Source: an uncultured Lachnospiraceae bacterium (GTDB lineage Bacteria > Bacillota > Clostridia > Lachnospirales > Lachnospiraceae). From it: a stretch of 32,000 nucleotides of DNA. Below the pieces are notes generated by a model. It saw only the letters and a program-made list of their open reading frames with translations, did no database searches and was not told the DNA's origin. Within the stretch, counting starts at the first letter, position 1; each line of letters begins with the position of its first letter. The stretch lies in the NCBI GenBank assembly GCA_947053345.1, contig CAMRSM010000006.1, positions 83,370 to 115,369 of the forward strand, written 5' to 3'. The translations under genes and the position numbers were made by a program. Shown in pieces: positions 4,969 through 23,751 of the stretch.

Positions 4969-5724
4969 TCATATCCTGGCTCTCAGTTTCAGCAAAATCT
5001 TTTTCTCCAGCCGTGATACCTGCACCTGGCTGATCCCCAGCGCCGCCGCAACCTCATTTTGGGTACGCTCCTCAAAATAGCGCATCGTGAGCAGGTTCCT
5101 CTCGGATTCCGGCAGGGTGTCAAGCAGTTCGAAGAGCAGCATATGGTCAAGCAGCTTTTCCTTCTCCGCATCGACCGCCTCCCCCATTCCGGAAAGCCTC
5201 CCGGCTGCCCCGTCCGTTCCCTGCACCACCTGATCAATCATGCAGATTTCACTGCCGTCCCCCTGATATACGGTGCGGTAGATGGAATCCACCTCCGCCC
5301 CCGCCTCCATCGCCATAACGATATCCTCGCGCTTGAGCTCGGTCGCGGCGGCGATTTCCTCCAAAGTCGCCTCCCGGCCAAGCTTGCGCTCCAAAGTCTC
5401 ACAGGCCTGACGGATTTTCCACGCGTTTTCTTTCATCGTCCGCGATACTTTCACCGGCCCGTCATCCCGCAAAAAACGCCGTATTTCCCCTGTGATCATC
5501 GGCACGGCATAGGTCGAAAACTGTACGTCATAATTTAGGTCAAACTTATCAACCGCCTTCATCAGGCCGATGCTGCCAATCTGGAAGAGATCGTCCGCCT
5601 CATAGCCCCTGCCAAGGAATCTGCGCACAATGCTCCAGACCAGCCCGATGTTTTCCGTAATCATCTGTTCCCTTGCTGCTTTATCTCCCTGTTTGCACCG
5701 CATCAGCAACAAACCCTGGTCCAC
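4969..5724 (-). CDS. sigF: Sporulation RNA polymerase sigma factor F
   Basis: Near-identical blocks to Bacillus SigF: LVWSIVRRFLGRGYEADDLFQIGSIGLMKAVDKFD, FSTYAVPMITGEIRRFLRDDGPVKVSR and GISQVQVSRLEKKIL. It is the third gene after spoIIAA/spoIIAB. GTG start is preceded by AAGGAGG with 7-nt spacing. Confidence 0.93.
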   Translation of the reverse strand: MDQGLLLMRCKQGDKAAREQMITENIGLVWSIVRRFLGRGYEADDLFQIGSIGLMKAVDKFDLNYDVQFSTYAVPMITGEIRRFLRDDGPVKVSRTMKENAWKIRQACETLERKLGREATLEEIAAATELKREDIVMAMEAGAEVDSIYRTVYQGDGSEICMIDQVVQGTDGAAGRLSGMGEAVDAEKEKLLDHMLLFELLDTLPESERNLLTMRYFEERTQNEVAAALGISQVQVSRLEKKILLKLRARI

Positions 5725-5765
5725 CGATAGCCTCCTTATTTCTTTTATGTGGAAGAACTCCCATC

Positions 5766-6341
5766 CTACTGGCCGTCACAAGCCCTGCGCGTCCCCATAT
5801 CTTCCTGTGATATTTTTTTCTTCATGCAGACGAGCGTCCCACAGTTTTTTTGCGAATATACCTCAAGTTCATCCATAAATGCCTCCATAAATGCAAAACC
5901 CATGCCGGAGCGCTCCATATCCGCCCTCGTCGTGTACATTGGCTCCATCGCGGAAAGCACATCCGCGATACCCGCGCCCCAATCCTCCACCTCAATCCAT
6001 ACCTCGTGCCCGGAAAGCCCCAAACGCATACAGATCGTGCCGTCCCCTTCCCCATAGCCGTGGATGACCGCGTTTGTCACCGCCTCTGAAACCGCCGTCT
6101 TAATGTCCGCCAGTTCCTCCAGCGTCGGGTTGAGCTGCGCCGCGTATGCCGCGGCTACCATGCGGGCAAAACTCTCATTGCGCGACTGTGCGGCAAACTG
6201 TAAACTAACCCCGTTTTCCATCCCTTTTGCGGGCTGCTCCTTTGTCCTCTGCCCCCGCGCCGCTCCGAACAGCCTGCATTTTTCCTCCGGCAATACCTGC
6301 CTTTCCCCCGCAATGCTCACAACTCCCTGAATCTGTTCCAT
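5766..6341 (-). CDS. spoIIAB: Anti-sigma F factor / serine protein kinase SpoIIAB (alternative internal start at 6221)
   Basis: From Met41 the protein matches SpoIIAB (LQFAAQSRNESFARMVAAAYAAQLNPTLEELADIKTAVSEAVTNAVIHGY; GHKL ATPase-type blocks EVEDWGAGI and ERSGMGF). The ATG at 6341 has a strong AAAGGAGGA site 10 nt upstream and starts 22 nt after the spoIIAA stop. The ATG at 6221 would give the canonical protein of about 151 aa. Confidence 0.85.
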   Translation of the reverse strand: MEQIQGVVSIAGERQVLPEEKCRLFGAARGQRTKEQPAKGMENGVSLQFAAQSRNESFARMVAAAYAAQLNPTLEELADIKTAVSEAVTNAVIHGYGEGDGTICMRLGLSGHEVWIEVEDWGAGIADVLSAMEPMYTTRADMERSGMGFAFMEAFMDELEVYSQKNCGTLVCMKKKISQEDMGTRRACDGQ

Positions 6342-6363
6342 TATGACTCATCCTCCTTTTTAG

Positions 6364-6762
6364 TCAGTTCCCGCTCGGTATATCCGCCCCCGGCATCCGT
6401 TTTTTCCCCAGTGCCGCAAGTGCTTCTTTTCTGTCCCCAAAGCGCGGCATGATCCGGTACAGCCCCGACAATGTCAAGATCCGGTCAATCTCCGCCCCAA
6501 CACCGCAGCAGGCGATATTGCCCCCCTGAAAAATCACTTTCTTGTAACGCCCCATGATCACACCGATTCCGGAACTATCCATAAAATGGATCCCCGAAAA
6601 ATCAAAGAGGAGATGCAGTGCCCCGCCCCGCTCTATCTGCTCATCCGCCTCCTGCCGCACCTGTACCGCACAGCAATGATCCAATTCCTGCACCGGCATG
6701 ATGATAAGCACCGGCCCGCACTGCTCGTACTGCGCCGCTTTTTTCGTTTCCTGCCGCTCCAT
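6364..6762 (-). CDS. spoIIAA: Anti-anti-sigma F factor SpoIIAA (STAS domain)
   Basis: STAS motif with the phosphorylatable serine context HFMDSSGIGVIMGRYKK, plus ILTLSGLYRI. Start was chosen at MERQETKK (ATG 6760-6762) behind GAAAGGAG. The longer 208-aa track ORF would overlap the upstream gene and has no protein-like N-terminus. Confidence 0.85.
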   Translation of the reverse strand: MERQETKKAAQYEQCGPVLIIMPVQELDHCCAVQVRQEADEQIERGGALHLLFDFSGIHFMDSSGIGVIMGRYKKVIFQGGNIACCGVGAEIDRILTLSGLYRIMPRFGDRKEALAALGKKRMPGADIPSGN

Positions 6763-6791
6763 ATCAAATCCACTCCTTTCTGCTTCTTTTA

Positions 6792-6808
6792 CGTCGCACC
6801 CTGTCGAA
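6792..6808. promoter_or_regulatory. Two Spo0A-box-like heptamers 10 nt apart, upstream of spoIIAA
   Basis: Plus strand has TGTCGAA (6802-6808, exact 0A-box consensus) and CGTCGCA (6792-6798, degenerate), with 10-nt start-to-start spacing. They lie 30-45 nt upstream of the spoIIAA ATG. Confidence 0.3.
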
Positions 6809-6846
6809 ACAAAAGAAAAGAGGTCAGCCCGCTGCTGTCCTCTTTT
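6808..6846 (-). terminator. Terminator-like hairpin after the zinc-ribbon/TPR gene
   Basis: Minus strand reads AAAAGAGGACAGC-AGCGG-GCTGACCTCTTTT followed by CTTTTGTTT. The stem is GAGG.CAGC / GCTG.CCTC with one A-A mismatch, and a T-rich tail follows. Confidence 0.5.
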
Positions 6847-6880
6847 CAAACGGTATCTTATTCTCTTTTCCTTCTGTTTC

Positions 6881-8302
6881 TTATTCTTCCTCCATCCCCA
6901 TCTCCCCGAGCCTTGTCCTCGCGTAGCCCGCCAGGGAAGAATCCGGGAACTGAGAGACCAGAAGCCGGTAATACTGGGCAGCCTGCTCATACGCCTCCAT
7001 CAGCTGGTAGGATTTTCCAAGGTAATAGCAGCAATAATCGTTGCGGAAACCGTAATCGTAGGATGCCTGCAGATAAATAGCCGCCTGTTCATAATCCCCG
7101 TCATCGTGCGCCTGCCGCCCAAGCGTGTAAGCAGGTTCTGCCACCCGGTCATAAATATCCCTCTGCATCTCCTGCACGAGTTTTTTCGCATCTGCATTAT
7201 CCATCCGCTCCGTATCAAGCCCGGAAAGCTTACCCGCCAGTTCCAGCAGCTCCTCCGGAGACACATCTTCCTTCACGGACACAACGAGATACTCCTGCAA
7301 TGCCAAAAACAGGTCATTGTACATCTCAACGTCGTACTCCGGTATCTCAAGCCCGGAAAGCTCCCTCTGCGTCTCCTCATATCTCGTCTTCCACAGTTCC
7401 GCTTCCTTCTCAAGCGATGTGATCGCCGCCTCCTTGATGCGTAATTCACTGCTGTAATCCAACTGGTTCTTCTCAAACTCCATGCGGATATTTTTGCGCG
7501 CCGTCGGGACGATCAGGAAAAATGTCACGAGAACCCCCAGGAGCGCCCCGATGACAAGCGCAACCCAAGCCATGACATTGGGCTTGTCCTCACTGTAATT
7601 GCCGGATGCCGCCGGGCGCAGACTTCCGATGCTTTCCACGGCCGCAAGTTCCTGCTCCCCCGACTGCGGGGCTTCTTTTTCTGTCTCCGCCTGGGCAGTG
7701 ATCTCCTTTAAATAGCGCAATGTTTTCGTATTTGCGACATCAATCTTCGCCGCGTACGTAAGCTGCTTTCTCGCCCGCTCCTTATCCCCCGTATGCAGAT
7801 ATAAAAGTGCCAAGAGCTGTCTTGCACGCAGGAAATTCGGGCTGAGGCTGACCGCCTTTTTTAGTTGGAGGATCGCCATGTCATCCCCCCCCTGCTTCGC
7901 CGATTCCAGCGCAAGGTTGTATTTCCGGATCGCCTGGTTCATCGCGTCAAATTTCGCCGGACTGTTCTGGACTTTCTCCATATACTCATCCGCCCGGTTA
8001 TCATCCGGCTGGAAATGCTTGCTGACGACCCATTCCCCCAATGCCGCAACGGTCTCACCCATCTCAAAATAGACAAGCCCCAGAAGGTTCCTCGCCACCG
8101 TATTCCGCTTATTCATCTCCAAGCTCTTTTTCAGCATCTGGACCGCGCCGCTTAAGTCCCGCACCCCCGCGCGTTCCAAGCCCTTATTATAATACAGGTT
8201 CGAGGACTGCATTATCTTTTTGTATACTGTCAGCTCCGCCCCGCAGGAATCACAGTATGTAACCGCCCCCCGGACCGCGTTGCCGCAACGTGGACATATC
8301 AT
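6881..8302 (-). CDS. Zinc-ribbon / TPR-repeat membrane protein, function unknown
   Basis: N-terminal CPRCG...CDSCG zinc ribbon, then TPR-like repeats (LGLVYFEMGETVAALGEW..., ALLYLHTGDKERARKQL). One TM helix (VMAWVALVIGALLGVLVTFFLIV), a coiled-coil-like segment and C-terminal TPR-like repeats (YYLGKSYQLMEAYEQAAQYYRLLV). RBS GAGGAA. Confidence 0.8.
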   Translation of the reverse strand: MICPRCGNAVRGAVTYCDSCGAELTVYKKIMQSSNLYYNKGLERAGVRDLSGAVQMLKKSLEMNKRNTVARNLLGLVYFEMGETVAALGEWVVSKHFQPDDNRADEYMEKVQNSPAKFDAMNQAIRKYNLALESAKQGGDDMAILQLKKAVSLSPNFLRARQLLALLYLHTGDKERARKQLTYAAKIDVANTKTLRYLKEITAQAETEKEAPQSGEQELAAVESIGSLRPAASGNYSEDKPNVMAWVALVIGALLGVLVTFFLIVPTARKNIRMEFEKNQLDYSSELRIKEAAITSLEKEAELWKTRYEETQRELSGLEIPEYDVEMYNDLFLALQEYLVVSVKEDVSPEELLELAGKLSGLDTERMDNADAKKLVQEMQRDIYDRVAEPAYTLGRQAHDDGDYEQAAIYLQASYDYGFRNDYCCYYLGKSYQLMEAYEQAAQYYRLLVSQFPDSSLAGYARTRLGEMGMEEE

Positions 8303-12994: not shown

Positions 12995-13327
12995 GTGTGC
13001 ATAAAAAAATCCTCCGTCACAATAAGGACGGAGGACCGTGGTACCACCTTAATTCGCAGCAAAAGCTGCCTCTTACACACTTCGCGGTTTCATCTGTCAA
13101 AGCACTTCGTTCGCAACGATCTGGCCTTGCAAATGCCGGAAAGCATTCGTCTGTAACGGGACTTCCCGTAGCACCCTACCCGGAACTTCCGCTCAGGTGC
13201 TCTGTTTGAAAGCTACCTTCCACCGTTTTTCCTGAGACAGCCTTTCAGCCCCGTGCCGTCCTCTCTGCCAGTACCCGCGGTGTACTCCTCTTTCGCGCTA
13301 CATTTTTCATGTCTGCAGATTTGATAT
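12995..13327 (-). promoter_or_regulatory. T-box leader (tRNA-sensing riboswitch) of valS
   Basis: Minus strand contains stem-I elements (GCGCGAAAGAGGAGTA, CAGAGAG) and the conserved T-box sequence AATTAAGGTGGTACCACGG (13036-13054), which overlaps the 5' side of the terminator. GGAAGGUAGC contains a candidate GUA (Val) specifier, but that assignment is tentative. Confidence 0.85.
13003..13035 (-). terminator. T-box attenuator terminator
   Basis: Stem TCCTCCGTC / GACGGAGGA (9 bp) with loop CTTATTGT, followed by seven T on the minus strand (13003-13009). Confidence 0.8.
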
Positions 13328-13362: not shown

Positions 13363-13729
13363 GGGGAAAATATCATCCGAACCGCATTTTCTGCACCGCG
13401 TCTTTTTTTGCTTGTGTCCGTTTTGCATTCTGCTCATAAAAGCATCGTTCTTTCCCAAAAACGGATGTAATATCCTTTTTGCGGAAACCGGCTTCCTTCC
13501 ACTTCCGGTGCGCCGGCCGTGGCAGCCCCACCATCAAATCCCGATTGTGATTTGATGATTTTTCAGGGGGAGTATAAATCATTATATTTTAATGATAAAG
13601 CATCCGCCACCCCCAGAATATGCAATCCATCGGTTTTGGGATGGATTTGATTGATCTTTCGGGAAATATTCCGGTACGGGCAGATGCCGAAAACTCTTTC
13701 GAATTGCCGAATGAAAATCAATATTTCTG

Positions 13730-13758
13730 TTGACAACTATAAAATATACTGTTAAAAT
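13730..13758 (+). promoter_or_regulatory. Sigma-A promoter of the MetRS-like gene leader
   Basis: TTGACA (13730-13735), 17-nt spacer ACTATAAAATATACTGT, then TAAAAT (13753-13758). Confidence 0.6.
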
Positions 13759-13785
13759 TATTCAAAATAAAAGAAGGATAAGCCC

Positions 13786-13878
13786 ATGATGAAACATTCA
13801 ATTTCCATAAACAAAATGAACCAGCGACAGCAGCTTATTGTCAAAATTGGCAATGGGCTTTTTGTGTTGTGTTCATAA
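13786..13878 (+). CDS. Candidate 30-aa leader peptide MMKHSISINKMNQRQQLIVKIGNGLFVLCS
   Basis: The ORF lies between the promoter and a strong terminator. GAAGGA sits 7 nt upstream of ATG-ATG. Three Met codons are present (codons 1, 2 and 11). It is too short for the supplied ORF track. Confidence 0.4.
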   Translation: MMKHSISINKMNQRQQLIVKIGNGLFVLCS

Positions 13879-13907
13879 CAGGTGTCTTATCCTGGTCCAT
13901 CTGAACC

Positions 13908-13953
13908 AAACGGCCAAAAGCTCGGTACGAGTTTCTGGCCGTTTTTATTTTTT
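13908..13953 (+). terminator. Intrinsic terminator (attenuator) between the leader ORF and the MetRS-like gene
   Basis: AAACGGCCAAAAGCTCG-GTA-CGAGTTTCTGGCCGTTT forms a 17-position stem with one A-C mismatch and one G-U pair. It is followed by TTATTTTTT. Confidence 0.7.
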
Positions 13954-14069
13954 ATAATGTTTTCATCTATTTCCGAGCGTGTGCAAAAAATGCTTTCTGC
14001 CGGATGTGCGTCAGGGTTTGCGGGAATAATTTTCAAACACACTCCAGGGATTCGGAAAGGAGGTATACT

Positions 14070-16145
14070 ATGCCGGAACAGTCCGAGCTTCCCCAGCAAA
14101 AAGGGAAGCAAGTGATAACTAAAATAAATAACAGAAAGGAACATGATAATATGATATGTAAGCGGTTAACATCAAAGGAACGCCCGACATTTCCTAAACG
14201 GGCAATCATTACGGCAGGTATGCCTTACGGAAATAAAAATTTACATTTTGGACATGTCGGCGGTATGTTTATCCATGCGGACATTTTCGCGCGGTTTTTA
14301 AGAGACCGAATCGGAAAAGACAATGTTATCTTTCTTTCCGGAACCGATTGTTATGGTTCCCCGATCATGGAAAGCTACCGCAAGCTGCAGGAAGCAGGGT
14401 ATGAGGGTACTTTGGAAGATTATGTACGTGCTAACCATGAGAACCAGAAAAAAACCCTGGAAAACTATGGTATCCGTCTTGATTTCTTTGGGGCATCGGC
14501 TCTGGGAGAAGCAGGTTTAATCCATAAAGAGGTCTCCGCGCAAGTGTTCCAAACTTTATACAAAAACGGATATATTAAGAAAATGTCCATGCCTCAGTTC
14601 TATGATGAAGAGAAAAAGATGTTCTTAAACGGAAGGCAGGTTACAGGGAAATGTCCCATACCGGGATGCACTTCGGAAAAAGCATACGCCGATGAGTGTT
14701 CCTTAGGACATCAGTTTTTGCCTTCGGAACTGATCAATCCCGTCAGTAGCTTATCAAACAAAAAACCTGTCCTAAGAGATGTGGAAAACTGGTATTTCGA
14801 TTTAGAATATTGCATTCCCATAGTAAAGGAATACAATGATTTCTTACGGAAAAATACAAACACGCGCAAGTATCAGTTAGAAACCGTAGAAGAATTTTTG
14901 AAAAAGCCTTCCATCTATGTACCAAAAAAATATTTCGGCGACCTGGCAGAATTGGCAGCAAAGCTGCCCCCTCACAAATTAACCAATGAGGAAAAGAAAG
15001 CGTCTGTTGTGTTTGAATTTGAAAATCTGGATGACCGCGACAGGGCTAAAAACGTATTGGAAGCAGACGGCATTCATTATACTTCCGGAAAGACACTGGT
15101 TCCCTTCCGGCTGTCCGGCAATGTAGAATGGGGTATCCCATTCCCGGAGTGTGAAGGATTAGACGATCTCACCTTTTGGGTATGGCCGGAATCGCTATGG
15201 GCACCGATTTCCTTTACTTTAGCCTATTTGAAAGAGCATGGAAAAAAAGACAACTTATCGAGGTGGTGGTATGATGAAGAATCGAAGGTTTATCAGTTTA
15301 TCGGAGAAGATAACATTTATTTCTATGCCATCGCCCAGACAGGGTTATTTACCGGATTACAGGTTCCCAAAGGGGAAGTACCGGATATGGAGACCGTATA
15401 TTTATCCCACATCATAGCCAACCGGCATTTATTGTATATGGATACAAAAGCCAGCAGCAGCTCCGAATTAAAGCCTCCTGCGGCAGATGAATTGCTAAAT
15501 TATTACACGAAAGATCAGCTGCGGATGCATTTTATGAGCCTGGGTCTGTCTTCCAAAAGTGTAGGCTTTAAACCGCAGGTATTTATGAAAGAGGAAGACC
15601 GGGTTGGTGTCGATATGGTTCTGAAAGATGGCAATTTAATCACCAATGTGTTTAACCGTCTGATCCGAACCTGCTTCTACGCGATCCAGAATAATTGTGA
15701 CGGAAAAATCCCCGAGGGCGAGGTGGGGGAAGAAATAAAACTTATGGCAGAGAAAACGGTTCTTGATTATGAGCGTTATATGTATAACCATGAGTTCCAC
15801 CGTATCTCTTATGCTTTAGATGACTTTATCCGGGGGATAAACAAGCATTGGGTAAACAATGTAAAGATTGCAGATGCCACGAATAATGCAGAATCCAGAA
15901 AACAGCTTGTTATTGATTGCTTTTATGCCTGTAAGGTTATGGCAATCCTGGTTCATCCAATTGCGCCGGAGGGATGCGAAATGTTTCGGGAATATCTAAA
16001 TTTAGGAGAAGAATTGTGGGATTGGAACCATATATTTGAGCCGGTTTCTTTTTATATTGCGGACGTAAAGAATCATAAGCTCAAGTATCTGGAGCCGAGA
16101 GTCGATTTCTTTAAAAAGCATGATTGTCAGCTGGCGGAAATGTAG
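14070..16145 (+). CDS. Methionyl-tRNA-synthetase-like class I aaRS paralog (HIGH intact, KMSKS degenerate); alternative start at 14151
   Basis: By-eye alignment to E. coli-type MetRS runs along the catalytic and anticodon-binding domains (PYGNKNLHFGH, SGTDCYGSPI, QFYDEEKKMFLNGRQVTGKCP, PVLRDVENWYFDL, YQFIGEDNIYFY). The KMSKS position reads KASSS. AAAGGAGG lies 6 nt upstream of the ATG at 14070. ATG 14151 (MICKRL) would give a MetRS-like N-terminal length. Confidence 0.88.
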   Translation: MPEQSELPQQKGKQVITKINNRKEHDNMICKRLTSKERPTFPKRAIITAGMPYGNKNLHFGHVGGMFIHADIFARFLRDRIGKDNVIFLSGTDCYGSPIMESYRKLQEAGYEGTLEDYVRANHENQKKTLENYGIRLDFFGASALGEAGLIHKEVSAQVFQTLYKNGYIKKMSMPQFYDEEKKMFLNGRQVTGKCPIPGCTSEKAYADECSLGHQFLPSELINPVSSLSNKKPVLRDVENWYFDLEYCIPIVKEYNDFLRKNTNTRKYQLETVEEFLKKPSIYVPKKYFGDLAELAAKLPPHKLTNEEKKASVVFEFENLDDRDRAKNVLEADGIHYTSGKTLVPFRLSGNVEWGIPFPECEGLDDLTFWVWPESLWAPISFTLAYLKEHGKKDNLSRWWYDEESKVYQFIGEDNIYFYAIAQTGLFTGLQVPKGEVPDMETVYLSHIIANRHLLYMDTKASSSSELKPPAADELLNYYTKDQLRMHFMSLGLSSKSVGFKPQVFMKEEDRVGVDMVLKDGNLITNVFNRLIRTCFYAIQNNCDGKIPEGEVGEEIKLMAEKTVLDYERYMYNHEFHRISYALDDFIRGINKHWVNNVKIADATNNAESRKQLVIDCFYACKVMAILVHPIAPEGCEMFREYLNLGEELWDWNHIFEPVSFYIADVKNHKLKYLEPRVDFFKKHDCQLAEM

Positions 16146-16168
16146 GCAAAAAAGGGGGCGTGTTGCAA

Positions 16169-16208
16169 GCGGGCCGGGCCGGATTTTCCGGTTCTGCCCG
16201 CTGTTTGT
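16169..16208 (+). terminator. Possible terminator after the MetRS-like gene
   Basis: GCGGGC-CGGGCCGGATTTTCCGGTTCT-GCCCGC with inner stem CCGGA/TCCGG, followed by TGTTTGT. The T-tract is weak. Confidence 0.35.
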
Positions 16209-16603
16209 ATCGTATACTTTTTCTTCCCGCAGGCCAAGATCTGATGCAATCCCTGTATTTTGTGAAAGCTTCCCTTTCAGGCAATATACGAATGATCGGT
16301 CAAAAAGCAAACCCTCCCCTTCCAGACGGATCCGGGATTGATCCCTATTGAACAGCACCGCAAAAAATCATCCGTATGTTGCTGAAAAAAGTATGATAAT
16401 ACATGAAATCAATTTCCTGTTCAAGCCATCCCGCCTTAAAATGCCATCCATATTCATGTACAGGCATAGGAAAACCCCGTTTTCTGATTTTCTACAACCT
16501 TTCGCGGGAACACCGACATCCTTATCTCCCCAAAGCCTATTTGGTATCCCCATGTGCGCAGCTTCCCAGGCAAAGCTTTCTTGATTAAAAATCCCCCATC
16601 CCA

Positions 16604-17767
16604 TCACCACGAAATCCCATGCTCCCCGGCGATCTTCCCCACCAGATCCGCATACGCGCTGTTCCCCTCCGCGATCTGGGAGAGCTCCTCCCGGCACATC
16701 GCAAGCTGCTCATTGTTAAATTCCAGCCGCTCCCGGATCTTCTGCCTGCGGATGTTCAGATGGTGGCGCACTTCCACCATCTCCTTCTCGTCAAGCAAAG
16801 CCTCCGCCTGATAGAGCCAGATCTCCGCGTCCTTGACCTCCTCTTCCAAAAGCGCGTCCATCAGCTCCCGGTTGTAATGCTCCAAAAGCTCCGTGCTTTT
16901 TTTATAGCGCCGCTCCTCATCCTTCGTATGCACATATTTCTCCCAGACTGCCGTCAGTTCCCGGTAGCTTTCCACCTGATATTTCTCGTAAGCATAATCC
17001 AGCGCGTTCGTGCAGTTCACCAGCTTAATCTTGACTTTATTTGTCAGCTGGATCACCCGGTTTAACTTGTAATCCGACTCATGCAGCACCCTGCCGCAGC
17101 GCCCTGCCGCAGCCGTGATATACGCCACGGTTCCCGCCGCAAGGGCAAGCACCAGAAGCATTGGAAGGAGCATGTCCGTCCCGGTGATCATATTCATCGC
17201 CAAAAGCGTCAGGAACAAAAATACGACCAAAAAACCTGCCCCGAAAGCCAGGTTCCTCAAAAAAATCTTCTTGTCCGCCGCGGATTCCTTTTCGTACTCG
17301 ATGACCGCGCGCTCCCCGTCCAGCTGCCTTAAATCCGAATGGATCATCTCGCGGTACTGCTCCTGCTCATAAATATTTTTCAGCGCGTCCGGTATTTCCC
17401 GCTCATAACGCTCCATCGCGCGGTACTGCTGCACCGGTACGCGGTCACTGCTGTTTTGGTATTTCACACGCTCCTTTGTCAGGTTGATGATGTTGCGCGC
17501 CGCGTCATTTAAATTCTGGCGGGCGGCAGGATCCATGCGCTCAATCTTCTGCATATCCGTAAGGTAGGAGGTCACCGCCTCGTACTCTCTCTGCGAGATG
17601 CCGGCCTGCCGTCCGAGCTCTTCCATCTGCTCACAGACCACCCCGACGATCTGTGCCGCCTCCTCCCTGCTAAGCCCTTTTTTACTGCGCTTTAACTGGC
17701 GCAGCGCCTCCTTCGCATTAAGAGCCTGCTCTTCCTGCTGCTGTTTTCTTTTTCGCCTTCTCATCAC
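16604..17767 (-). CDS. Hypothetical coiled-coil membrane protein with a central two-TM hairpin (gene 4 of the operon)
   Basis: 387 aa with a basic N-terminus (MMRRRKRKQQQ). Two hydrophobic helices are FGAGFLVVFLFLTLLAMNMI and LLPMLLVLALAAGTVAYITAAA, flanked by charged helical regions. RBS AGGAGG lies 5 nt upstream of the ATG. Confidence 0.75.
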   Translation of the reverse strand: MMRRRKRKQQQEEQALNAKEALRQLKRSKKGLSREEAAQIVGVVCEQMEELGRQAGISQREYEAVTSYLTDMQKIERMDPAARQNLNDAARNIINLTKERVKYQNSSDRVPVQQYRAMERYEREIPDALKNIYEQEQYREMIHSDLRQLDGERAVIEYEKESAADKKIFLRNLAFGAGFLVVFLFLTLLAMNMITGTDMLLPMLLVLALAAGTVAYITAAAGRCGRVLHESDYKLNRVIQLTNKVKIKLVNCTNALDYAYEKYQVESYRELTAVWEKYVHTKDEERRYKKSTELLEHYNRELMDALLEEEVKDAEIWLYQAEALLDEKEMVEVRHHLNIRRQKIRERLEFNNEQLAMCREELSQIAEGNSAYADLVGKIAGEHGISW

Positions 17768-17909
17768 AGCCTCCTATTTTGAGTCCCGCTGACTTCCCTG
17801 CCCGGCACCCCTACCGTGGAAGGGCTTTCCTTCGCCCTGCCCCTGAACCCTCTTTTGGTGCCGTCACGGGATTTTGCTGTTTTACGCGCCGTGCTAAAAT
17901 CCACATGTC

Positions 17910-18746
17910 TTACCCCGCCACCTTCCGGTACTTCTCCTTCAAACGCTCCAAAAGCGCGTCCATGCACTGATAATATTCCGCGATCCGCCCTTCCTCATGC
18001 AGCTTTTTCAGCCGTTCAAGCTCTTGAAATTCCCCCGTCTGTTCCGCGGCATTCCTCGCGGCATAAACCTCCTGCGCCACCTGTGCCGTCACCTCGCTGC
18101 GGGGCATCAGGGCTTTCAATTCCTGATCCATCCGCTCCTTCTGCCCGGAGAGCGTAAGTGCTATAAAATACTGCCGCAGTGTATCGTCAGCGCCGTTGCG
18201 CTCGTACGCATCCCGGAAATATTCCACCGCCTGGCTGATATTCCCGGCATGCATCTTCACCACACCAACGTTGTGCAAAAGGTCACCAAAGACATCGCCC
18301 GGAAGCTCCGCCAATCCCCCGGAAAGTAAGATCTCCTGGTACATCGCACCGGCCTCGCGCTCCCTGCCTTCCTCCCAGAGCTTGTCCGCCTTCCATTTTT
18401 TTCTCTCCAAAGGGCTCTTCGCATAAAACGCGTCGTAATCCTTCAAAAACGCTTTGATCTCCTGCGCGTCATAATAATCCGCACTGCAAAAACACGCGAC
18501 CATCACATCCTTCGCACCCGCGCGCGCATCGACAAGATGGCGCAGGTACTCCGCACGCTCGCCAAGCCCGAGCTCCTGACCGATGAAACGGATAAACTCC
18601 TCGGAATAAAGCTCCTCCTGAATCTCAAAGGCATTGTGGTAGAGGACATGACAAAGCTCCTCAATGCTCGAAACCCGGTCGCCGGTCGCCGCAAAAACAT
18701 AAGGCCGCCCTGCCTCCCTCCCCGCACAAAGTATCACCCTTCCCAT
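17910..18746 (-). CDS. Hypothetical helical (TPR-like) protein (gene 3 of the operon)
   Basis: Start was chosen at MGRVILCAG (ATG 18744-18746), 31 nt after the upstream stop. The longer track ORF overlaps the preceding gene. Helical repeat-like segments include AGAMYQEILLSGG and ISQAVEYFRDAYERNG. No family is recognised. Confidence 0.7.
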   Translation of the reverse strand: MGRVILCAGREAGRPYVFAATGDRVSSIEELCHVLYHNAFEIQEELYSEEFIRFIGQELGLGERAEYLRHLVDARAGAKDVMVACFCSADYYDAQEIKAFLKDYDAFYAKSPLERKKWKADKLWEEGREREAGAMYQEILLSGGLAELPGDVFGDLLHNVGVVKMHAGNISQAVEYFRDAYERNGADDTLRQYFIALTLSGQKERMDQELKALMPRSEVTAQVAQEVYAARNAAEQTGEFQELERLKKLHEEGRIAEYYQCMDALLERLKEKYRKVAG

Positions 18747-18777
18747 GTCTTTCCCCTGCCTTTCCGTATCATTTCCG

Positions 18778-20031
18778 TTACAATATCTGTTCCCAGATGC
18801 GGTGCGTCGTCCCTGCCCTGCCAAAACCGCTATCCCGAAGCTGCACCACCGGCGTGTCCCTGTCCACATAAAAAAGCCTGAGCTCCAAACGTACCGTTTT
18901 ATTTTCACGCTGCATCAGATGGTCAAGGATCATGACCTCATGCAAAGGTTCACGCCGCATGACATGGTCAACCAAAAATTCCACCTCGCTCGTATCATCA
19001 AGAACCAAGCGCAGCGACCGCTTCACCGTGCGGTAATCGCTCCCCGCCTCGGAGAGCAGGAAATACTGTTCCTTCGCATCATGGTACGCCTTGACCATAA
19101 TGTCCTCTCGCGTCATATTCTCCCCGAGAAATAAGCAGTCCTGCCCCTCAATGTGCATATGCGCCGCATAACAGGCTCCCCGCGCAAAGAGATTCTGCCC
19201 GTAAAATACTCTTCTGCCATCGCATAGTTTCTGCAGTGCCCCCATCACCCAGCCATCCAAGAAACCGGAACCCGTCACAAAAACCGAGGTAACCGGCTGG
19301 TTCGCAAGCTGCTGCTGCACCATATTGTAAAACCAGTATGCCCGGCGTTCCGCTTCCTCCCTGCATATCCCGCCGCCAAAATATTCTTCCGTCAGATCCC
19401 CATGTTTTGACATGACCGAAAGCGGCTCACGTTTTCTCGAAAAATACACGCGGTCATAATAAAAATATTCATCACCACACTCAAACAGAATGGTATCATT
19501 TTTCCAGAGTTCCTGCCGCATATTGACAATGTAGCGCATAAAGCATTCGGTGTGCGACAAGAGCAAAACCCTCTCCCTGCCGACACCCAGCCGCGCCAAA
19601 ATGTCCGTGAGCACACCACCCGCCGCAAGTGCCCCCTCCGGAAGCGTAACCGCGAGCATGGTGACGGCACTGCCACCCTGCTGCCCCATCAGGGCAAGGA
19701 TCCTCCTCAAATATTCCTCCATCAGAAATTCCGCGCGGTACGTCTCCCCTCCCAACGAGAGCTCCTCCCCGGAGAGCAGCCGCCTTAAAAGCCCGTACGC
19801 GCCAAGTGCCTCCCCCCTTGCAACAACGCGCGCCGCCTCCTTCCCGTAGAGCCATTCCCCGTCCGCAGTGCGCCTTGCAAGCACGACCGGCATCGAAAGT
19901 TCCTGCCCGTCCCTGTCGCAGCACACCGGTTCCGGTTCATTTTTCCCGGCATTGTAGCGGCTGATCAGTGCTGACTCCCAGCCCAGGTCCAACCCGTAAC
20001 AAAACACCTCTTCCAACTCTGTCTTCTCCAT
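18778..20031 (-). CDS. Divergent Hsp70/actin-fold (ASKHA-like) protein with degenerate nucleotide-binding motifs (gene 2 of the operon)
   Basis: Order and spacing of YGLDLGWES (compare DnaK IGIDLGTTNS), AVTLPEG (ITVPAYF), VLLLSHTECFMRY (LRIINEPTAAALAY), ILFECGDEYFYYD (in place of LVFDLGGGTFD) and VFVTGSGFLDGWV (VLLVGGSTRIP). A C-terminal beta-rich domain follows. Confidence 0.8.
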   Translation of the reverse strand: MEKTELEEVFCYGLDLGWESALISRYNAGKNEPEPVCCDRDGQELSMPVVLARRTADGEWLYGKEAARVVARGEALGAYGLLRRLLSGEELSLGGETYRAEFLMEEYLRRILALMGQQGGSAVTMLAVTLPEGALAAGGVLTDILARLGVGRERVLLLSHTECFMRYIVNMRQELWKNDTILFECGDEYFYYDRVYFSRKREPLSVMSKHGDLTEEYFGGGICREEAERRAYWFYNMVQQQLANQPVTSVFVTGSGFLDGWVMGALQKLCDGRRVFYGQNLFARGACYAAHMHIEGQDCLFLGENMTREDIMVKAYHDAKEQYFLLSEAGSDYRTVKRSLRLVLDDTSEVEFLVDHVMRREPLHEVMILDHLMQRENKTVRLELRLFYVDRDTPVVQLRDSGFGRAGTTHRIWEQIL

Positions 20032-20049: not shown

Positions 20050-23000
20050 TTACCTGCGCCCGTTGCGGATCCGGAACAGATGATCCGCCTCGTAATCCGT
20101 CCGGATATAATTTTCAAGCAGCTTCATCACAGCCTCGTCATCCTGCATCTGGCGCGCCGCAAGAATCAGGTTCAGTATATCGTAACGGCTTTTCCCGTCG
20201 TGCACCACATCGTCCGCCGACACTGCCGCCGTGCTCTCCGTGATCACCGTCTGCCCGTCCGCCTCCTCCGCTATGTAATACTGCATACTTTCCTCCCGGA
20301 ACAAAACAAAACCCGCAGTAAATATTCCATGACAGATATTTTTCATCTCGCGCTCCGAAAACTGCTCCTGATCCCCAATGCGGTAATGCAGCACGACCCG
20401 GTGCGACGGATCCGTGTGATATTCCACAAAAGTCTTGTCGTACAACTCCTCCGGCAGCTGCACAAAATCCTCAAACCGCCGGAAAAACGGGAGCAGGATG
20501 CCTTTTTTTAAGATGCCGGAAAGCTTGTACTCAAGAAATTTTTTCTGCCGTTCCGAAAGCCCCTCCTCCTGCGCATAATGTTTTAAAAGGGCCAGCGTGC
20601 AGATGTCATTTTCCTCCAGTGAGACTTCCCGCTCCATCAGCTCGAAGACCTCCGGTGAAATCATCCGGTCATTCAGCAGGAATTTATATGCATAGTAATT
20701 TAAGAATGCCCGGATCAATTTCCGGTTTGTGCCGTAGCGGTAATAACTCATAAATACGCCCTGCGCGTTCCCGGTACAGCTCTCGGAAAACAAGATCTGC
20801 CCCAGCAGGCTCTCTTCCAGGCTTTCCGTATCAAGTTCTTCCGCGTGCGCCGTCTTCCAGAGCGCGTACATCCCCTCGGTCGAACCGTGATAAAATCGGC
20901 ACAGGTAAGAAAGCAATTCCTTGTCACAGCGCCCGCACTCAAAAACATAATATGCCAGAAACAGCAAAAACGGATCCGCCTCCGGCTGCTCTGCCGCCTC
21001 GAGGCAGCGCAGTGCCAGCTTATTCAGCCACTTTACCTCAATCTCCTCCGTGCCGAAACATTGCAGGGCTTCCCTCGCGCGCCCGTCAAAACCGCGCATA
21101 ATAAAAAAATGAATGATGCGCGCCCGCTCCTTTTTTGTAAATTTTTCAAGCCGGATCTTCCGCAGGTAATGCTCAAACAGATCCCCTTCATAATTTTCGT
21201 AATAATACTCCATCAAAAAGCGGACGCAGGATTCCCGTTCTTCCTCGGATACCGCTGCATTTTCCGCCAGAAGCCTGCTCAGTTCTTCCGGCTGGCTGCC
21301 GTATTTTTGGTATTTGTTCTCCTCCTCTTTCAGATGCAGCAAAAGCGGCAGCTGTGTACAGCCGTCATCATAGCATGCCTGCAGGTTCTGCTCCTGAAAA
21401 ACAAGCGGTTCCACGGTTACATGGACATCGCCCGAACGGCTGCTCTTTAAATTGACCGCCGGATAGCAGGCTCCCTCCCCATCGACCAAAAAGACCTCCG
21501 CATCCTCGGTGTAGAGCATGATCACTGCCTCCCCGCGCACGACCGGCACATACGAGGGTTCCTCCTGCCCCGGATGGAACACTGCCACACGCGCAAATCT
21601 GCCCTGCTTTACCGAGAGCTTATGCGCGAACGCAACTTTCGGCAGGCAGGCGAGTGCCTCCTTCGGCATACCGTCCCGGTATACCTCGTTATAGATGAGC
21701 GCAAGGGAATCATTCACCGCCCCCTTCGCGATCTGCTCCCCCGCAAACGCCTCCATACCCTGCCGGTATTTCGGGTACAGTGCCGCATGCTCCGACTTAT
21801 GGCGGATCAGATCCGCATACAGCATCGCCTTTTTCCGGTCACTCAATTCGCAGCGGTAGGAAAAATATAGGAAGATGTTTGGATGGATCGGCTCCTTCTC
21901 CTCTTCCCCGCGGCAATACATATAATATTCCGGAAGCTGTGCGATTTTTAACTGGCGTGTGACCGCCCGGTGAAACCATATGTAATCGCGCGCTTCCCTG
22001 CGCCCGCTCCGTATGATCAGCGCGCACACCGCGCCAAGCAGCTCATCGTCCGGCCTGTTATGATAACAGCGCCCGAGCACCTGATACAAAAGCGGCCTAA
22101 TCCCCTTCTCCCGCTGGGCCAGATATACCACCCGGCGCGCCAGCTCCGCGTCCACACAGCCGTTGGATAGCGCCAGCTTTAACACATGCAGTTCAAATCC
22201 TCCAAGTTCTTTTAGCAGCGAGGCATCTTTGCGCAGGATACGCACCGCTTCCGCGAGCAGAAGCACATGATAGCCGTACTCCGCAGTAAATTCCCGTATC
22301 GCAAAAAACCTGTGGGCATTGTCCCTGTACTCCCCGTCAAGCAGGATAAGGCAGCGGAAAAGTTCGGGATTTTCAGGATTTTCACGGTACAATCCACGGA
22401 TTTTCTCCACGGCGGTCTTCTCGGACATCCGCTCCTTCTTCTGTATCGCCTGAAGGTAATAGAATGTACCGAGCAGTCCGGCATCCCCGGCAAATTCCTT
22501 CTCCCCAAGCAGCGAAATCCCCTCCTTCACAGCAGCATCCTTGCCTGCAAGCTGCCAGAAATATAGCTGGCAGAGCTTTCCCGCGTATCCGTCCCTCTGC
22601 GTCCCCTCCGCTCCGCGCAGGCGTAAAAGCGGCTCCTTTGCCTGTTCCGCGCAATGTTTTGCGTTCCCGTCCGCGCAATAATAGGCAAGGAATATCCGGA
22701 ACAGCTCACAGACCGCCCTCTTCCCCGCCTGCCTCTGCCGCCGCTGTTCCGCCCTGCGGTGCGGAACCACACATGTCAGCCGCGCGGCAAGTTCCTTTTT
22801 CGGAGTCAGCACACGGATCTTCGTTTCCCTTTTTCCCGCCGGGACATCCTGTACACGGACGATGAAATCAACCACGAGCCGGTCGTCCACAAAATCCCCC
22901 GCCGAAAAAGACGTTCTTGAGAGCTGGATGAAACCGGCATCGCATGCGATCTCGCCCTCCACATAACCCCAGCCGCTCTTGCATACGACAAGCTGATCCT

Positions 23001-23751
23001 GAAAATTATAGCCGCCCGCCTCATACGAAAACTCCGTTTTTTCAAGCCGCAGGTCAACCGCCGCCTTTTTTCCTGTCGCGATCAAAAACTCCTCCACCGC
23101 CTGCCCCTTACGCCCCGTCAAGGCCAGGACCCGGTGCAAAAGTTCATAGCGCTTATCATGGTAAAAAATCACGCGCGCAAAATCCCTGCCAAAAAATAAA
23201 GCTTCCGCCATGTCCGGATCTGCCTTTGCCAGACTTGCAAACTGAAACAGGTCGCGGACACTCTCCTCCCCTGCCGCAAGCGCCGGATAGTGAACCTGCA
23301 CCTCGTATGGCAGATTCTCTTCCCCCGCATCCGTCACAAAAACCAGCTTCCCCTCATAGCGGTCACCTGCACCCGCATGTTCCGCATGGAAAACAAAGGG
23401 AATCACGAACTCCTCCCCCACAAACTGTTCCTTCGGCAAAGCAAACAGCAGGCTGTCCGGAAAGATCACACCCTTCATCCTGCGACCCGCGTCATTCGTC
23501 ACGCGGATACTTCCCTCATACGCCCGCCCCGCCTCCGTGTGGATCAGCAGTTTCTCCGGCTCAATGCACAGCCTCGGCATCTGGTATTCAAACTTTTCTT
23601 TCGCTAACTGCCCGATTTTCTCTTTCAACCGATACACTCCCCGATCTTTCGTTTTCAGGCTTCCCCCTCTTTTCCTGTCCCGCTGCCGCGGCAGGATTTC
23701 TGCCTGTAAATATCCACTGTCTAGTATAACGTAATCATAGTCCAAAATCAA
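20050..23751 (-). CDS. Giant (about 1233 aa) hypothetical protein: two N-terminal beta-sandwich-like modules plus a long helical-repeat body (gene 1 of the operon)
   Basis: Uninterrupted 3.7-kb ORF with coding-like composition. The track start is TTG at 23749-23751 behind AGGAAG (8-nt spacing). The first in-frame ATG is codon 58 (MPRLCIEPEKL) and lacks a good RBS. No catalytic motif is recognised. Confidence 0.85.
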   Translation of the reverse strand: MILDYDYVILDSGYLQAEILPRQRDRKRGGSLKTKDRGVYRLKEKIGQLAKEKFEYQMPRLCIEPEKLLIHTEAGRAYEGSIRVTNDAGRRMKGVIFPDSLLFALPKEQFVGEEFVIPFVFHAEHAGAGDRYEGKLVFVTDAGEENLPYEVQVHYPALAAGEESVRDLFQFASLAKADPDMAEALFFGRDFARVIFYHDKRYELLHRVLALTGRKGQAVEEFLIATGKKAAVDLRLEKTEFSYEAGGYNFQDQLVVCKSGWGYVEGEIACDAGFIQLSRTSFSAGDFVDDRLVVDFIVRVQDVPAGKRETKIRVLTPKKELAARLTCVVPHRRAEQRRQRQAGKRAVCELFRIFLAYYCADGNAKHCAEQAKEPLLRLRGAEGTQRDGYAGKLCQLYFWQLAGKDAAVKEGISLLGEKEFAGDAGLLGTFYYLQAIQKKERMSEKTAVEKIRGLYRENPENPELFRCLILLDGEYRDNAHRFFAIREFTAEYGYHVLLLAEAVRILRKDASLLKELGGFELHVLKLALSNGCVDAELARRVVYLAQREKGIRPLLYQVLGRCYHNRPDDELLGAVCALIIRSGRREARDYIWFHRAVTRQLKIAQLPEYYMYCRGEEEKEPIHPNIFLYFSYRCELSDRKKAMLYADLIRHKSEHAALYPKYRQGMEAFAGEQIAKGAVNDSLALIYNEVYRDGMPKEALACLPKVAFAHKLSVKQGRFARVAVFHPGQEEPSYVPVVRGEAVIMLYTEDAEVFLVDGEGACYPAVNLKSSRSGDVHVTVEPLVFQEQNLQACYDDGCTQLPLLLHLKEEENKYQKYGSQPEELSRLLAENAAVSEEERESCVRFLMEYYYENYEGDLFEHYLRKIRLEKFTKKERARIIHFFIMRGFDGRAREALQCFGTEEIEVKWLNKLALRCLEAAEQPEADPFLLFLAYYVFECGRCDKELLSYLCRFYHGSTEGMYALWKTAHAEELDTESLEESLLGQILFSESCTGNAQGVFMSYYRYGTNRKLIRAFLNYYAYKFLLNDRMISPEVFELMEREVSLEENDICTLALLKHYAQEEGLSERQKKFLEYKLSGILKKGILLPFFRRFEDFVQLPEELYDKTFVEYHTDPSHRVVLHYRIGDQEQFSEREMKNICHGIFTAGFVLFREESMQYYIAEEADGQTVITESTAAVSADDVVHDGKSRYDILNLILAARQMQDDEAVMKLLENYIRTDYEADHLFRIRNGRR

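Follow-up and report, generated by a model that had tools for sequence, protein, structure and literature searches.

The gene at 14070-16145 of the DNA considered here raises a simple question: what does an enzyme built like a methionyl-tRNA synthetase (MetRS) do if it is not a MetRS? The gene lies in a 32,000-nucleotide stretch, hereafter the window, from an uncultured Lachnospiraceae bacterium (contig CAMRSM010000006.1, positions 83,370 to 115,369). A sequence-only reading of this DNA had left two options, a horizontally acquired inhibitor-insensitive MetRS or a neofunctionalised aminoacyl-tRNA synthetase (aaRS)-like enzyme. Comparison with relatives in other genomes suggests an answer in several steps. 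Expression of the family very probably responds to the charging state of tRNA-Gln, and the enzyme itself probably acts on tRNA-Gln. As to the reaction, we lean, with slightly better than even confidence, to direct charging of tRNA-Gln with Gln by a MetRS-scaffold enzyme, controlled in the window by a stalling-dependent attenuator. What we infer is that antitermination depends on stalling, that tRNA-Gln is the substrate and that Gln is the amino acid.

The link to tRNA-Gln comes from the upstream regions, which were surveyed in 80 fetched loci. With an nhmmer profile built from the T-boxes detected by Rfam, a T-box was found directly upstream of the family gene in 28 of the 80. Nine loci were checked with Rfam itself and carry T-boxes immediately upstream of the orthologs at 94-120 bits (the gathering score of RF00230 is 93 bits); the Rfam T-boxes of L. 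phytofermentans, C. sartagoforme, Anaerosporobacter, Fusibacter and a Clostridium metagenome-assembled genome (MAG) reach 106-120 bits. The register of the specifier codon was calibrated on the T-box of the valS gene in the window, GAA-G-GUA-G, which must encode Val. Read in this way, 27 of the 28 T-boxes have Gln specifiers (20 CAA and 7 CAG) and none has AUG. The single T-box without a readable specifier is that of L060, and four of the seven CAG leaders are more divergent, with a loop one base shorter. An alternative ACA register is ruled out, because the base preceding the specifier may be A or G, and the codon is Gln in either case. In one locus, L041, the ribosome-binding site of the gene lies within the 3' arm of the T-box terminator and the ATG follows immediately, so the coupling between T-box and gene is direct.

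The window gene itself is preceded by another kind of leader. Neither a T-box nor any other known RNA family was found there with Rfam at gathering and E-value thresholds, which returned chance-level matches only. In the 14 closest loci, the window included, a leader-type control replaces the T-box; this leader is absent from homologs of less than about 70% identity. It contains a small open reading frame (ORF) whose peptide has a core conserved in all 14 loci, N-Q-Q-Q-Q-L-I-V...N-G-L-F, and the leader Met codons are not conserved (for example in L007 and L015). Synonymous CAG/CAA swaps among the leader ORFs indicate that the predicted ORF is translated. The whole leader has a minimum free energy (MFE) of -65 kcal/mol, with z = -6.0 against shuffled controls. 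Over the 14 leaders, hairpin 1 and the terminator together have 92.5% of cells paired versus 35-46% in slid controls, and nine of their pairs are changed on both sides, a number reached in 0 of 500 shuffles. The alternative antiterminator helix has 93% of cells paired versus 27-51% in slid controls, and the same helix forms in silico in the divergent leader of L016. The family thus has two sensors of unrelated mechanism, one a riboswitch that binds tRNA and the other a run of codons that is translated, and both would therefore report on tRNA-Gln. The T-box-controlled and leader-controlled genes carry the same protein signature (of the 82 family proteins in the fetched loci, 80 have KASSS and all 82 have WPESLW) and are, judged by this signature, orthologs.

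The leader would work as follows. Transcription would begin at the promoter at 13730-13758, and the 30-codon leader would be translated by a ribosome. When Gln-tRNA(Gln) is scarce, the ribosome would stall at the Asn-Gln-(Arg/Gln)-Gln-Gln codons at 13819-13833 and cover the 5' arm of hairpin 1. The freed segment 13855-13875 could then pair with 13902-13923 and pre-empt the terminator at 13908-13944, and RNA polymerase would read into the gene. When Gln-tRNA is ample, the ribosome would move on to the stop codon at 13876, where it covers segment 2, or hairpin 1 would re-form; in either case the terminator would fold and transcription would end. Without translation hairpin 1 would form, and only a stall at the Gln codons would keep the terminator from folding. 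This arrangement is like that of the trp, his, leu and thr attenuators, both in the short ORF, whose run of sensor codons falls within segment 1, and in the mutually exclusive 1:2, 2:3 and 3:4 helices followed by a terminator. In contrast to these, the window leader would sense Gln and control a synthetase-like gene in a Firmicute, which is normally T-box territory, and no Rfam family matches it.

Two further observations concern this leader. The Shine-Dalgarno region of the leader ORF (13775-13782) can pair with a conserved CUUAUCCU element (13888-13895, CUUAUCC) between the leader stop and the terminator. This pairing has 78.5% of cells paired versus 38-56% in slid controls, a level reached by 53 of 500 shuffles, and it might limit translation of the leader to the first ribosome. 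In L008, a (GCAAA)n tandem repeat lies at about 5545-5590, between the leader promoter and the leader ribosome-binding site.

The protein also departs from MetRS, although its descent from that family is clear. It matches PF09334 with 231 bits (2.8e-68) in a single-domain architecture (Pfam), and no GlxRS family appears among its profile matches in Pfam and NCBIfam. The NCBIfam metG equivalogs are not reached (NF001100, 246 versus 587 bits; TIGR00398, 208 versus 336), which argues that the product is MetRS-like, yet no recognisable MetRS. An AlphaFold2 model of the full-length protein is of good quality by its own scores (predicted local distance difference test, pLDDT, 89.7; predicted template modelling score, pTM, 0.91). 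The best PDB matches of the model in Foldseek are MetRSs from E. coli, P. abyssi and others, with target-normalised template modelling (TM) scores up to 0.85; E. coli MetRS (1qqt) has 0.83, and 1qqt and 1rqg both match at E ~1e-34. The family thus shares with the two-knuckle MetRSs of E. coli and P. abyssi (TM 0.83-0.85) the Rossmann core, the connective peptide domain with its knuckles, the KMSKS-loop domain and the alpha-helical anticodon-binding domain. It differs from MetRS in the KASSS loop, in an E-S-L insertion in a pocket helix, in a module of about 66 residues and in control by tRNA-Gln instead of tRNA-Met; unlike the long canonical forms, it also lacks the C-terminal tRNA-binding (Trbp111-like) domain. 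Much of this had been noticed by the sequence-only reading. The MetRS homology and the view that this is no housekeeping MetRS are borne out by the profile and structure matches and by the failure to reach the metG cut-offs. The same is true of the intact HIGH motif and of the loss of the second catalytic lysine, since the alignment places KASSS at E. coli K332-S336. The insertion, then put at about 65 residues, spans residues 280-345 and is absent from canonical MetRS; it has a pLDDT of 83-88 in the full-length model and is modelled poorly alone (62). The FRLSGN motif is present. The motif C-S-L-G-H is likewise found where CxxC was expected, but the loss of the second knuckle that it had been taken to mean is doubtful: C195, C200, C210 and H214 (691-residue numbering) are invariant in the family alignment, which suggests a putative Cys3-His metal site and a knuckle that is probably retained.

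The residues that differ are those expected to decide specificity. In a profile alignment with E. coli MetRS, the family retains HIGH, D52, W253, A256/P257, the first KMSKS lysine, N391 and R395, whereas L13 is changed to M, Y260 to F, H301 to Y and K335 to S. Thus the Met-pocket positions 13, 260 and 301 are exactly those changed, while the adenylate-binding residues (HIGH, D52 and the first Lys) are kept. The same three positions are, as the titles of PDB entries also indicate, those altered in engineered MetRSs with new amino-acid specificity. The anticodon-binding domain is complete, with invariant equivalents of N391 and R395, and the tryptophan that reads the CAU anticodon (W461 of the 'PW' motif) is lost.

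A useful comparison is offered by the MetRS-like domains of hydrazine synthetases (PyrN, Spb40 and Tri28; PDB 9l8v/9vq4), in which the MetRS scaffold is re-specified to Glu, Gly, Ser, Ala and Tyr. The PyrN domain is among the Foldseek matches of the window model (PDB 9l8v). Like the family, it has lost the second KMSKS lysine: it has KFSTG for KMSKS and still forms glutamyl-adenylate, holding the Glu gamma-carboxylate by Arg390 and Arg425 (10.1101/2025.08.22.671884). By analogy with PyrN, KASSS does not imply a dead enzyme. Arg425 of PyrN stands four residues past the 'DN' motif, at the H301 position, where the family has an uncharged Tyr; this difference favours a neutral side chain, and so Gln over Glu, as the predicted substrate. 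The family is not simply another hydrazine synthetase. Those domains act without tRNA, have a cupin as fusion or partner and are found in natural-product clusters, whereas the family protein has a single domain and no such context, and its similarity to them is far weaker than that to true MetRS (2.5e-15 versus 1.9e-70).

The window protein belongs, by these sequence criteria, to a large clade of MetRS-derived class I synthetase-like enzymes that was not described in the literature searched. With each GTDB species represented by a single genome, a scan gave at least 593 genomes that encode a relative, mostly Clostridia. The hosts include Lachnospiraceae, Clostridium, Oscillospiraceae, Erysipelotrichaceae and Peptostreptococcales, together with single MAGs labelled Spirochaetales and Sumerlaeota. 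A word-indexed protein search gave more than 100 clusters at 75-91% identity, and the only name attached to them by PGAP is 'class I tRNA ligase family protein' (Lachnospiraceae). An exhaustive search of cluster representatives gave full-length relatives aligned in a single stretch down to about 30% identity; canonical MetRSs came next, at about 160 bits and in two stretches. A member 42% identical to the window protein stands beside queA/queH and an RsmB-type methyltransferase gene in Collinsella aerofaciens (L089, 7001-9151). The family has crossed phylum boundaries, with this member in an actinobacterium (Coriobacteriia).

Two groups can be told apart within the clade. Group A, to which the window protein belongs (Lachnospiraceae, Ruminococcus and other Bacillota), always has K-A-[S/A]-S-S at the KMSKS site and a C-x-L-G-H knuckle. 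Group B, at about 30% identity and from Gram-negative-type MAGs (P0152, P0165, P0183 and P0184; loci L085-L087), keeps KMSKS and CxxC. Both contain the inserted module and the WPESL pocket motif, both show FY for FH, and both lack the 'PW' anticodon motif. Group B might represent an intermediate stage or a different non-Met synthetase; the gene contexts of its loci were uninformative.

The neighbouring genes are patchy: all-versus-all clustering of the flanking ORFs gave no operon partner conserved across all loci, and most loci without a specific leader have the family gene close behind a co-directional gene. Certain neighbours recur. The glutamyl-tRNA synthetase (GluRS) gene gltX is adjacent to the family gene in six taxa in all: it lies directly upstream in L066, L080, L084 and Monoglobus, downstream in L082, and upstream in R. 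albus 7 pRUMAL02, where a single small ORF intervenes. In L047 and L048, ileS is upstream of the family gene. In two loci from Oscillospiraceae/Ruminiclostridium, mnmA follows the family gene by about 55 nt (L074, 7887-8774; L076, 7049-8116). MnmA is the U34 2-thiouridylase of tRNA-Gln, tRNA-Glu and tRNA-Lys. The gltX, ileS and mnmA neighbours are translation-type operons. Some of the adjoining gltX copies belong to a divergent GluRS-like clade of about 550 residues (L066, 4288-5943; L082, 7986-9617; and R. albus 7 pRUMAL02, L088, 131-1789). Among these three the identity is 46-57%, and to canonical gltX it is 33-38%; PGAP names the R. albus copy only 'glutamate--tRNA ligase family protein'; the Monoglobus copy (L090, 4241-5887) is placed in this clade by length alone. 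With the family gene, the GluRS-like gene could make up a module of two genes, in which a discriminating GluRS may be combined with the new enzyme. No tRNA-Gln gene occurs in 60 loci or in the window, and there is no linkage to tRNA genes. Motif scans that covered about 1 Mb of flanking DNA gave no GatA, GatB or glutaminyl-tRNA synthetase (GlnRS), and no cupin, N-hydroxylase or nitrogen-metabolism neighbours were found in the 80 loci. A c-di-GMP-I riboswitch in the flank of L025 (11312-11394) and a cobalamin riboswitch in that of L044 (4724-4874) are unrelated to the present subject.

In L. phytofermentans, the family gene is located downstream of gap-pgk-tpi. The ISDg strain of this species has an annotated MetRS, Cphy_0025, beside an aminopeptidase gene at 40.5 kb, with its own T-box (40126-40381), the start of which coincides with a mapped cluster of transcription starts (PMC5171806 supplements). 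A MetRS with its own T-box at another locus argues that L. phytofermentans has, by annotation, a MetRS separate from the family gene.

In the window, the gene stands on DNA of unusual composition. The stretch 13583-16603 has a G+C content of 0.423 versus 0.540 in the remaining window; in 500-nt windows it is 0.39-0.45 over 13501-16500 with both flanks at about 0.54. G+C at third codon positions is 0.46 in the MetRS-like gene, 0.74 in valS and 0.65 in the convergent ORF at 20050-23751. The sharp drop in composition proposed earlier is thereby confirmed, but the stretch is not otherwise empty around its one convincing gene, since a promoter, a leader ORF and an attenuator, all conserved, lie at 13730-13956. 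The statement that the gene has no T-box is right for the window and wrong for the family, and the T-box claimed for valS next door is indeed there (13021-13307, minus strand), with a GUA specifier and 91.2 bits against the 93-bit gathering score; it would be missed by default annotation pipelines. The frame of the MetRS-like ORF extends over 14004-16145 (plus strand), and an alternative start at ATG 14151, equivalent to that used by many homologs, would give 664 residues.

In most hosts, the G+C of the family gene tracks that of the genome (median gene difference from the flanks +0.018, with genes ranging from 28% to 57% G+C), which indicates that the gene is long-resident and functional there. 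The genes of the Gln-leader subfamily are AT-richer than their surroundings (window -0.12, L011 -0.15, L018 -0.11, L001 -0.08) and occupy differing chromosomal sites in related Lachnospiraceae. Between the window and one homolog at another chromosomal site, two blocks are conserved, 13713-13951 (about 240 nt) and the gene at 14046-16144; between hosts, homology spans exactly 13711-13956 plus 14045-16158. Leader and gene thus behave as a transferable cassette, which is AT-rich and was probably acquired recently in the genome of the window. The earlier suggestion of horizontal acquisition is well matched by the foreign composition and by the different sites of the leader-plus-gene unit. No mobility repeats, integrase or transposase bounding the island were found in the window. 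The only direct repeat, D1 (22 nt, 77%), looks like chance. A phage collection gave weak partial matches only, all of them to MetRS genes of enterobacterial type (<34% identity, <=37% of the query), and the plasmid matches are megaplasmids or mislabelled chromosome pieces. Elsewhere in the window, a spoIIAA / spoIIAB / sigF-like module lies at 4969-6990 on the minus strand (a STAS domain, an anti-sigma kinase of the HATPase_c_2 type and a sigma factor of the sigma-70 family). At 16604-18908, also on the minus strand, the convergent operon ends with two ORFs of 387 and 332 residues without a Pfam match; coiled-coil-like sequence abounds in the 387-residue product, whose central segment is hydrophobic. 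The features of the leader and the gene are collected in Table 1.

Table 1. Coordinates of the leader and of the MetRS-like gene in the window (aa, residues; CDS, coding sequence)
Feature	Position	Strand	Evidence or remark
Leader promoter: TTGACA, 17-nt spacer, extended -10 TGTTAAAAT	13730-13758	+	11/12 consensus matches, with TG; conserved in 13 related loci
Shine-Dalgarno of leader ORF, GAAGGA	13773-13778	+	7 nt upstream of ATG 13786; subfamily-wide conservation
Leader ORF, 30 codons, MMKHSISINKMNQRQQLIVKIGNGLFVLCS and stop	13786-13878	+	Orthologous mini-ORFs in 14 loci
Putative sensor codons Asn-Gln-Arg-Gln-Gln	13819-13833	+	Inside 5' arm of hairpin 1; N-Q-Q-Q-Q in most relatives
Hairpin 1 (predicted anti-antiterminator)	13817-13875	+	5' arm 13817-13843, 3' arm 13848-13875; 85-93% of cells paired, 14 sequences, compensatory changes
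Alternative antiterminator helix (candidate), 13855-13875 / 13902-13923	13855-13923	+	MFE fold with 5' arm masked and terminator 3' arm absent
Predicted intrinsic terminator, stem 13908-13924 / 13928-13944, then U-tract	13908-13956	+	Inverted repeat I4; 96% of cells paired; 5 pairs changed on both sides
Shine-Dalgarno of main gene, AAGGAGG	14057-14063	+	Before ATG 14070; relatives conserved from 14046 on
MetRS-derived class I aaRS-like CDS	14070-16145	+	691 aa; homology, fold, profile matches
HIGH motif as HFGH, intact	14244-14255	+	Residues 59-62
Zinc-knuckle region CPIPGC...C-S-L-G-H	14652-14711	+	Invariant columns and motif census
Family-specific inserted module, ~66 aa, beta-alpha-beta-beta-alpha	14907-15104	+	Residues 280-345; without counterpart in canonical MetRS
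WPESLW pocket motif	15183-15200	+	W is E. coli W253, followed by the three-residue E-S-L insertion
DNIYFY	15309-15326	+	Last Tyr at position of MetRS H301 (Met-sulfur ligand) and PyrN R425 (Glu gamma-carboxylate ligand)
KASSS replacing KMSKS	15447-15461	+	Residues 460-464, aligned to E. coli K332-M-S-K335-S336

What remains is to weigh direct charging of tRNA-Gln with Gln against other ways in which these data might be explained. Several points weigh against direct charging itself. T-boxes also control biosynthetic and transport genes, and a response to tRNA-Gln is alone no proof of a tRNA substrate; in about 37 of the 80 loci, no leader specific for an amino acid is present. The family also lacks the second KMSKS lysine, though PyrN with its KFSTG keeps adenylation. 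In the attenuator, the changes in the antiterminator are one-sided only, with no double compensatory changes; this helix is compatible with the data, without covariation proof. The enzyme might alternatively be a tRNA-Gln-specific GluRS, analogous to GluRS2 of Helicobacter, which places Glu on tRNA-Gln for amidation by GatCAB. The tRNA-Gln-responsive regulation would fit this equally, the recurrent adjacency to GluRS genes, including the divergent clade of about 550 residues, could mean a split of labour, and a MetRS-fold domain that binds a Glu-adenylate analogue does exist (PyrN-C, PDB 9l8v). However, the two Arg of PyrN are Tyr and Phe here, which together with the invariant Glu of WPESLW would leave no obvious counter-charge for Glu, and we consider this explanation unlikely, though worth keeping in mind. 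A slightly lower place is given to a tRNA-independent adenylate-forming enzyme under T-box control, such as an AsnA-like amide synthetase making Gln or another Gln-related ligase, in which the anticodon domain would be a mere scaffold, like that of the hydrazine synthetases. T-boxes often control biosynthetic genes; AsnA, a relative of AspRS, and the MetRS-like domains of hydrazine synthetases act without tRNA; and the second KMSKS lysine and W461 are lost. Yet the neighbours are gltX, ileS and mnmA rather than genes of nitrogen metabolism, cupins or N-hydroxylases, and the full anticodon-binding domain is kept with invariant equivalents of N391 and R395. Moreover, synthesis of Gln needs activation of the gamma-carboxylate, which has no precedent in the MetRS fold. 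It is therefore a rather improbable alternative.

Two other explanations fare much worse. An inhibitor-insensitive MetRS acquired horizontally, the first option of the sequence-only reading, would account for the fold, the overall homology and the foreign-looking DNA of the window copy, and resistant aaRS paralogs are a known phenomenon (PMC5388404). Against it stand all 27 readable specifiers, which are Gln and never AUG, and the leader, in which the Gln run is conserved and the Met codons are not. Changes affect the Met-sulfur ligands and all of the specificity positions L13, Y260 and H301, as well as W461, the tryptophan of the CAU anticodon; the score is 246 bits against the metG equivalog cut-off of 587, and L. 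phytofermentans has the separate annotated MetRS Cphy_0025 with its own T-box. This option is thus not supported, and we give it very little credence; its counterpart, the neofunctionalised aaRS-like enzyme, pointed in the right direction, in view of the tRNA-Gln-linked control and the altered specificity residues. Finally, the enzyme might substitute for the tRNA-dependent amidotransferase, adenylating the side chain of Glu on tRNA-Gln and converting it to Gln. The link to tRNA-Gln, the adjacency to GluRS and the use of ATP would suit this role. From the established mechanism of T-boxes, however, which sense only whether the 3' end of the tRNA is acylated or free, such control would be blind to the conversion of Glu-tRNA-Gln to Gln-tRNA-Gln; there is also no glutaminase partner and no precedent for such chemistry in the MetRS fold, so that this explanation, too, seems highly unlikely.

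Direct charging by a MetRS-scaffold enzyme would have analogues of two kinds. GlnRS and GluRS2 have the same proposed role, the charging of tRNA-Gln, and all are class I enzymes; they are of the GlxRS lineage (class Ib), however, with another anticodon-binding domain and no specific sequence relationship to the family. As to regulation, thrZ and tyrZ of B. subtilis are auxiliary aaRS paralogs controlled by T-boxes. Likewise, the class I LysRS gene lysK of Bacillus cereus is a second synthetase gene induced only by the uncharged cognate tRNA (PMC2916919). Paralogs of the lysK, thrZ and tyrZ type charge the tRNA of their own family, whereas here the Gln regulation disagrees with the MetRS protein family. 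Published surveys found Firmicutes mixed for GlnRS and GatCAB and did not notice the clade or a Gln T-box on a synthetase gene (PMC2494555, PMC3927822, PMC5388404). In TBDB, Gln specifiers are among the rarest.

We tentatively suggest, at somewhat less than even confidence, that the clade is a third, evolutionarily independent route to Gln-tRNA(Gln): a true glutaminyl-tRNA synthetase derived from MetRS and not from GluRS. It would be a housekeeping enzyme in some lineages (the gltX-linked Oscillospiraceae and Monoglobus) and a portable self-regulated cassette in others, with the divergent GluRS sometimes co-travelling as part of a transferable 'direct pathway' module. The set of aaRSs is regarded as essentially closed, and class I LysRS, SepRS and PylRS have each reshaped views on the origin of the genetic code. 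If the suggestion is true, a new route to Gln-tRNA(Gln) would stand alongside GlnRS and the pathway of non-discriminating GluRS (ND-GluRS) with GatCAB, and it would be clear that amino acid and tRNA identity can both be changed in a synthetase. Hundreds of Clostridia from gut and rumen carry the gene, whose annotation would be corrected, and the enzyme would be relevant to narrow-spectrum inhibitors of MetRS, GlnRS or GatCAB directed against gut anaerobes. The Gln-codon leader would be a rare case of trp-style attenuation of a synthetase-like gene in Firmicutes, and the interchange of T-box and leader peptide before the same gene would amount to a natural experiment.

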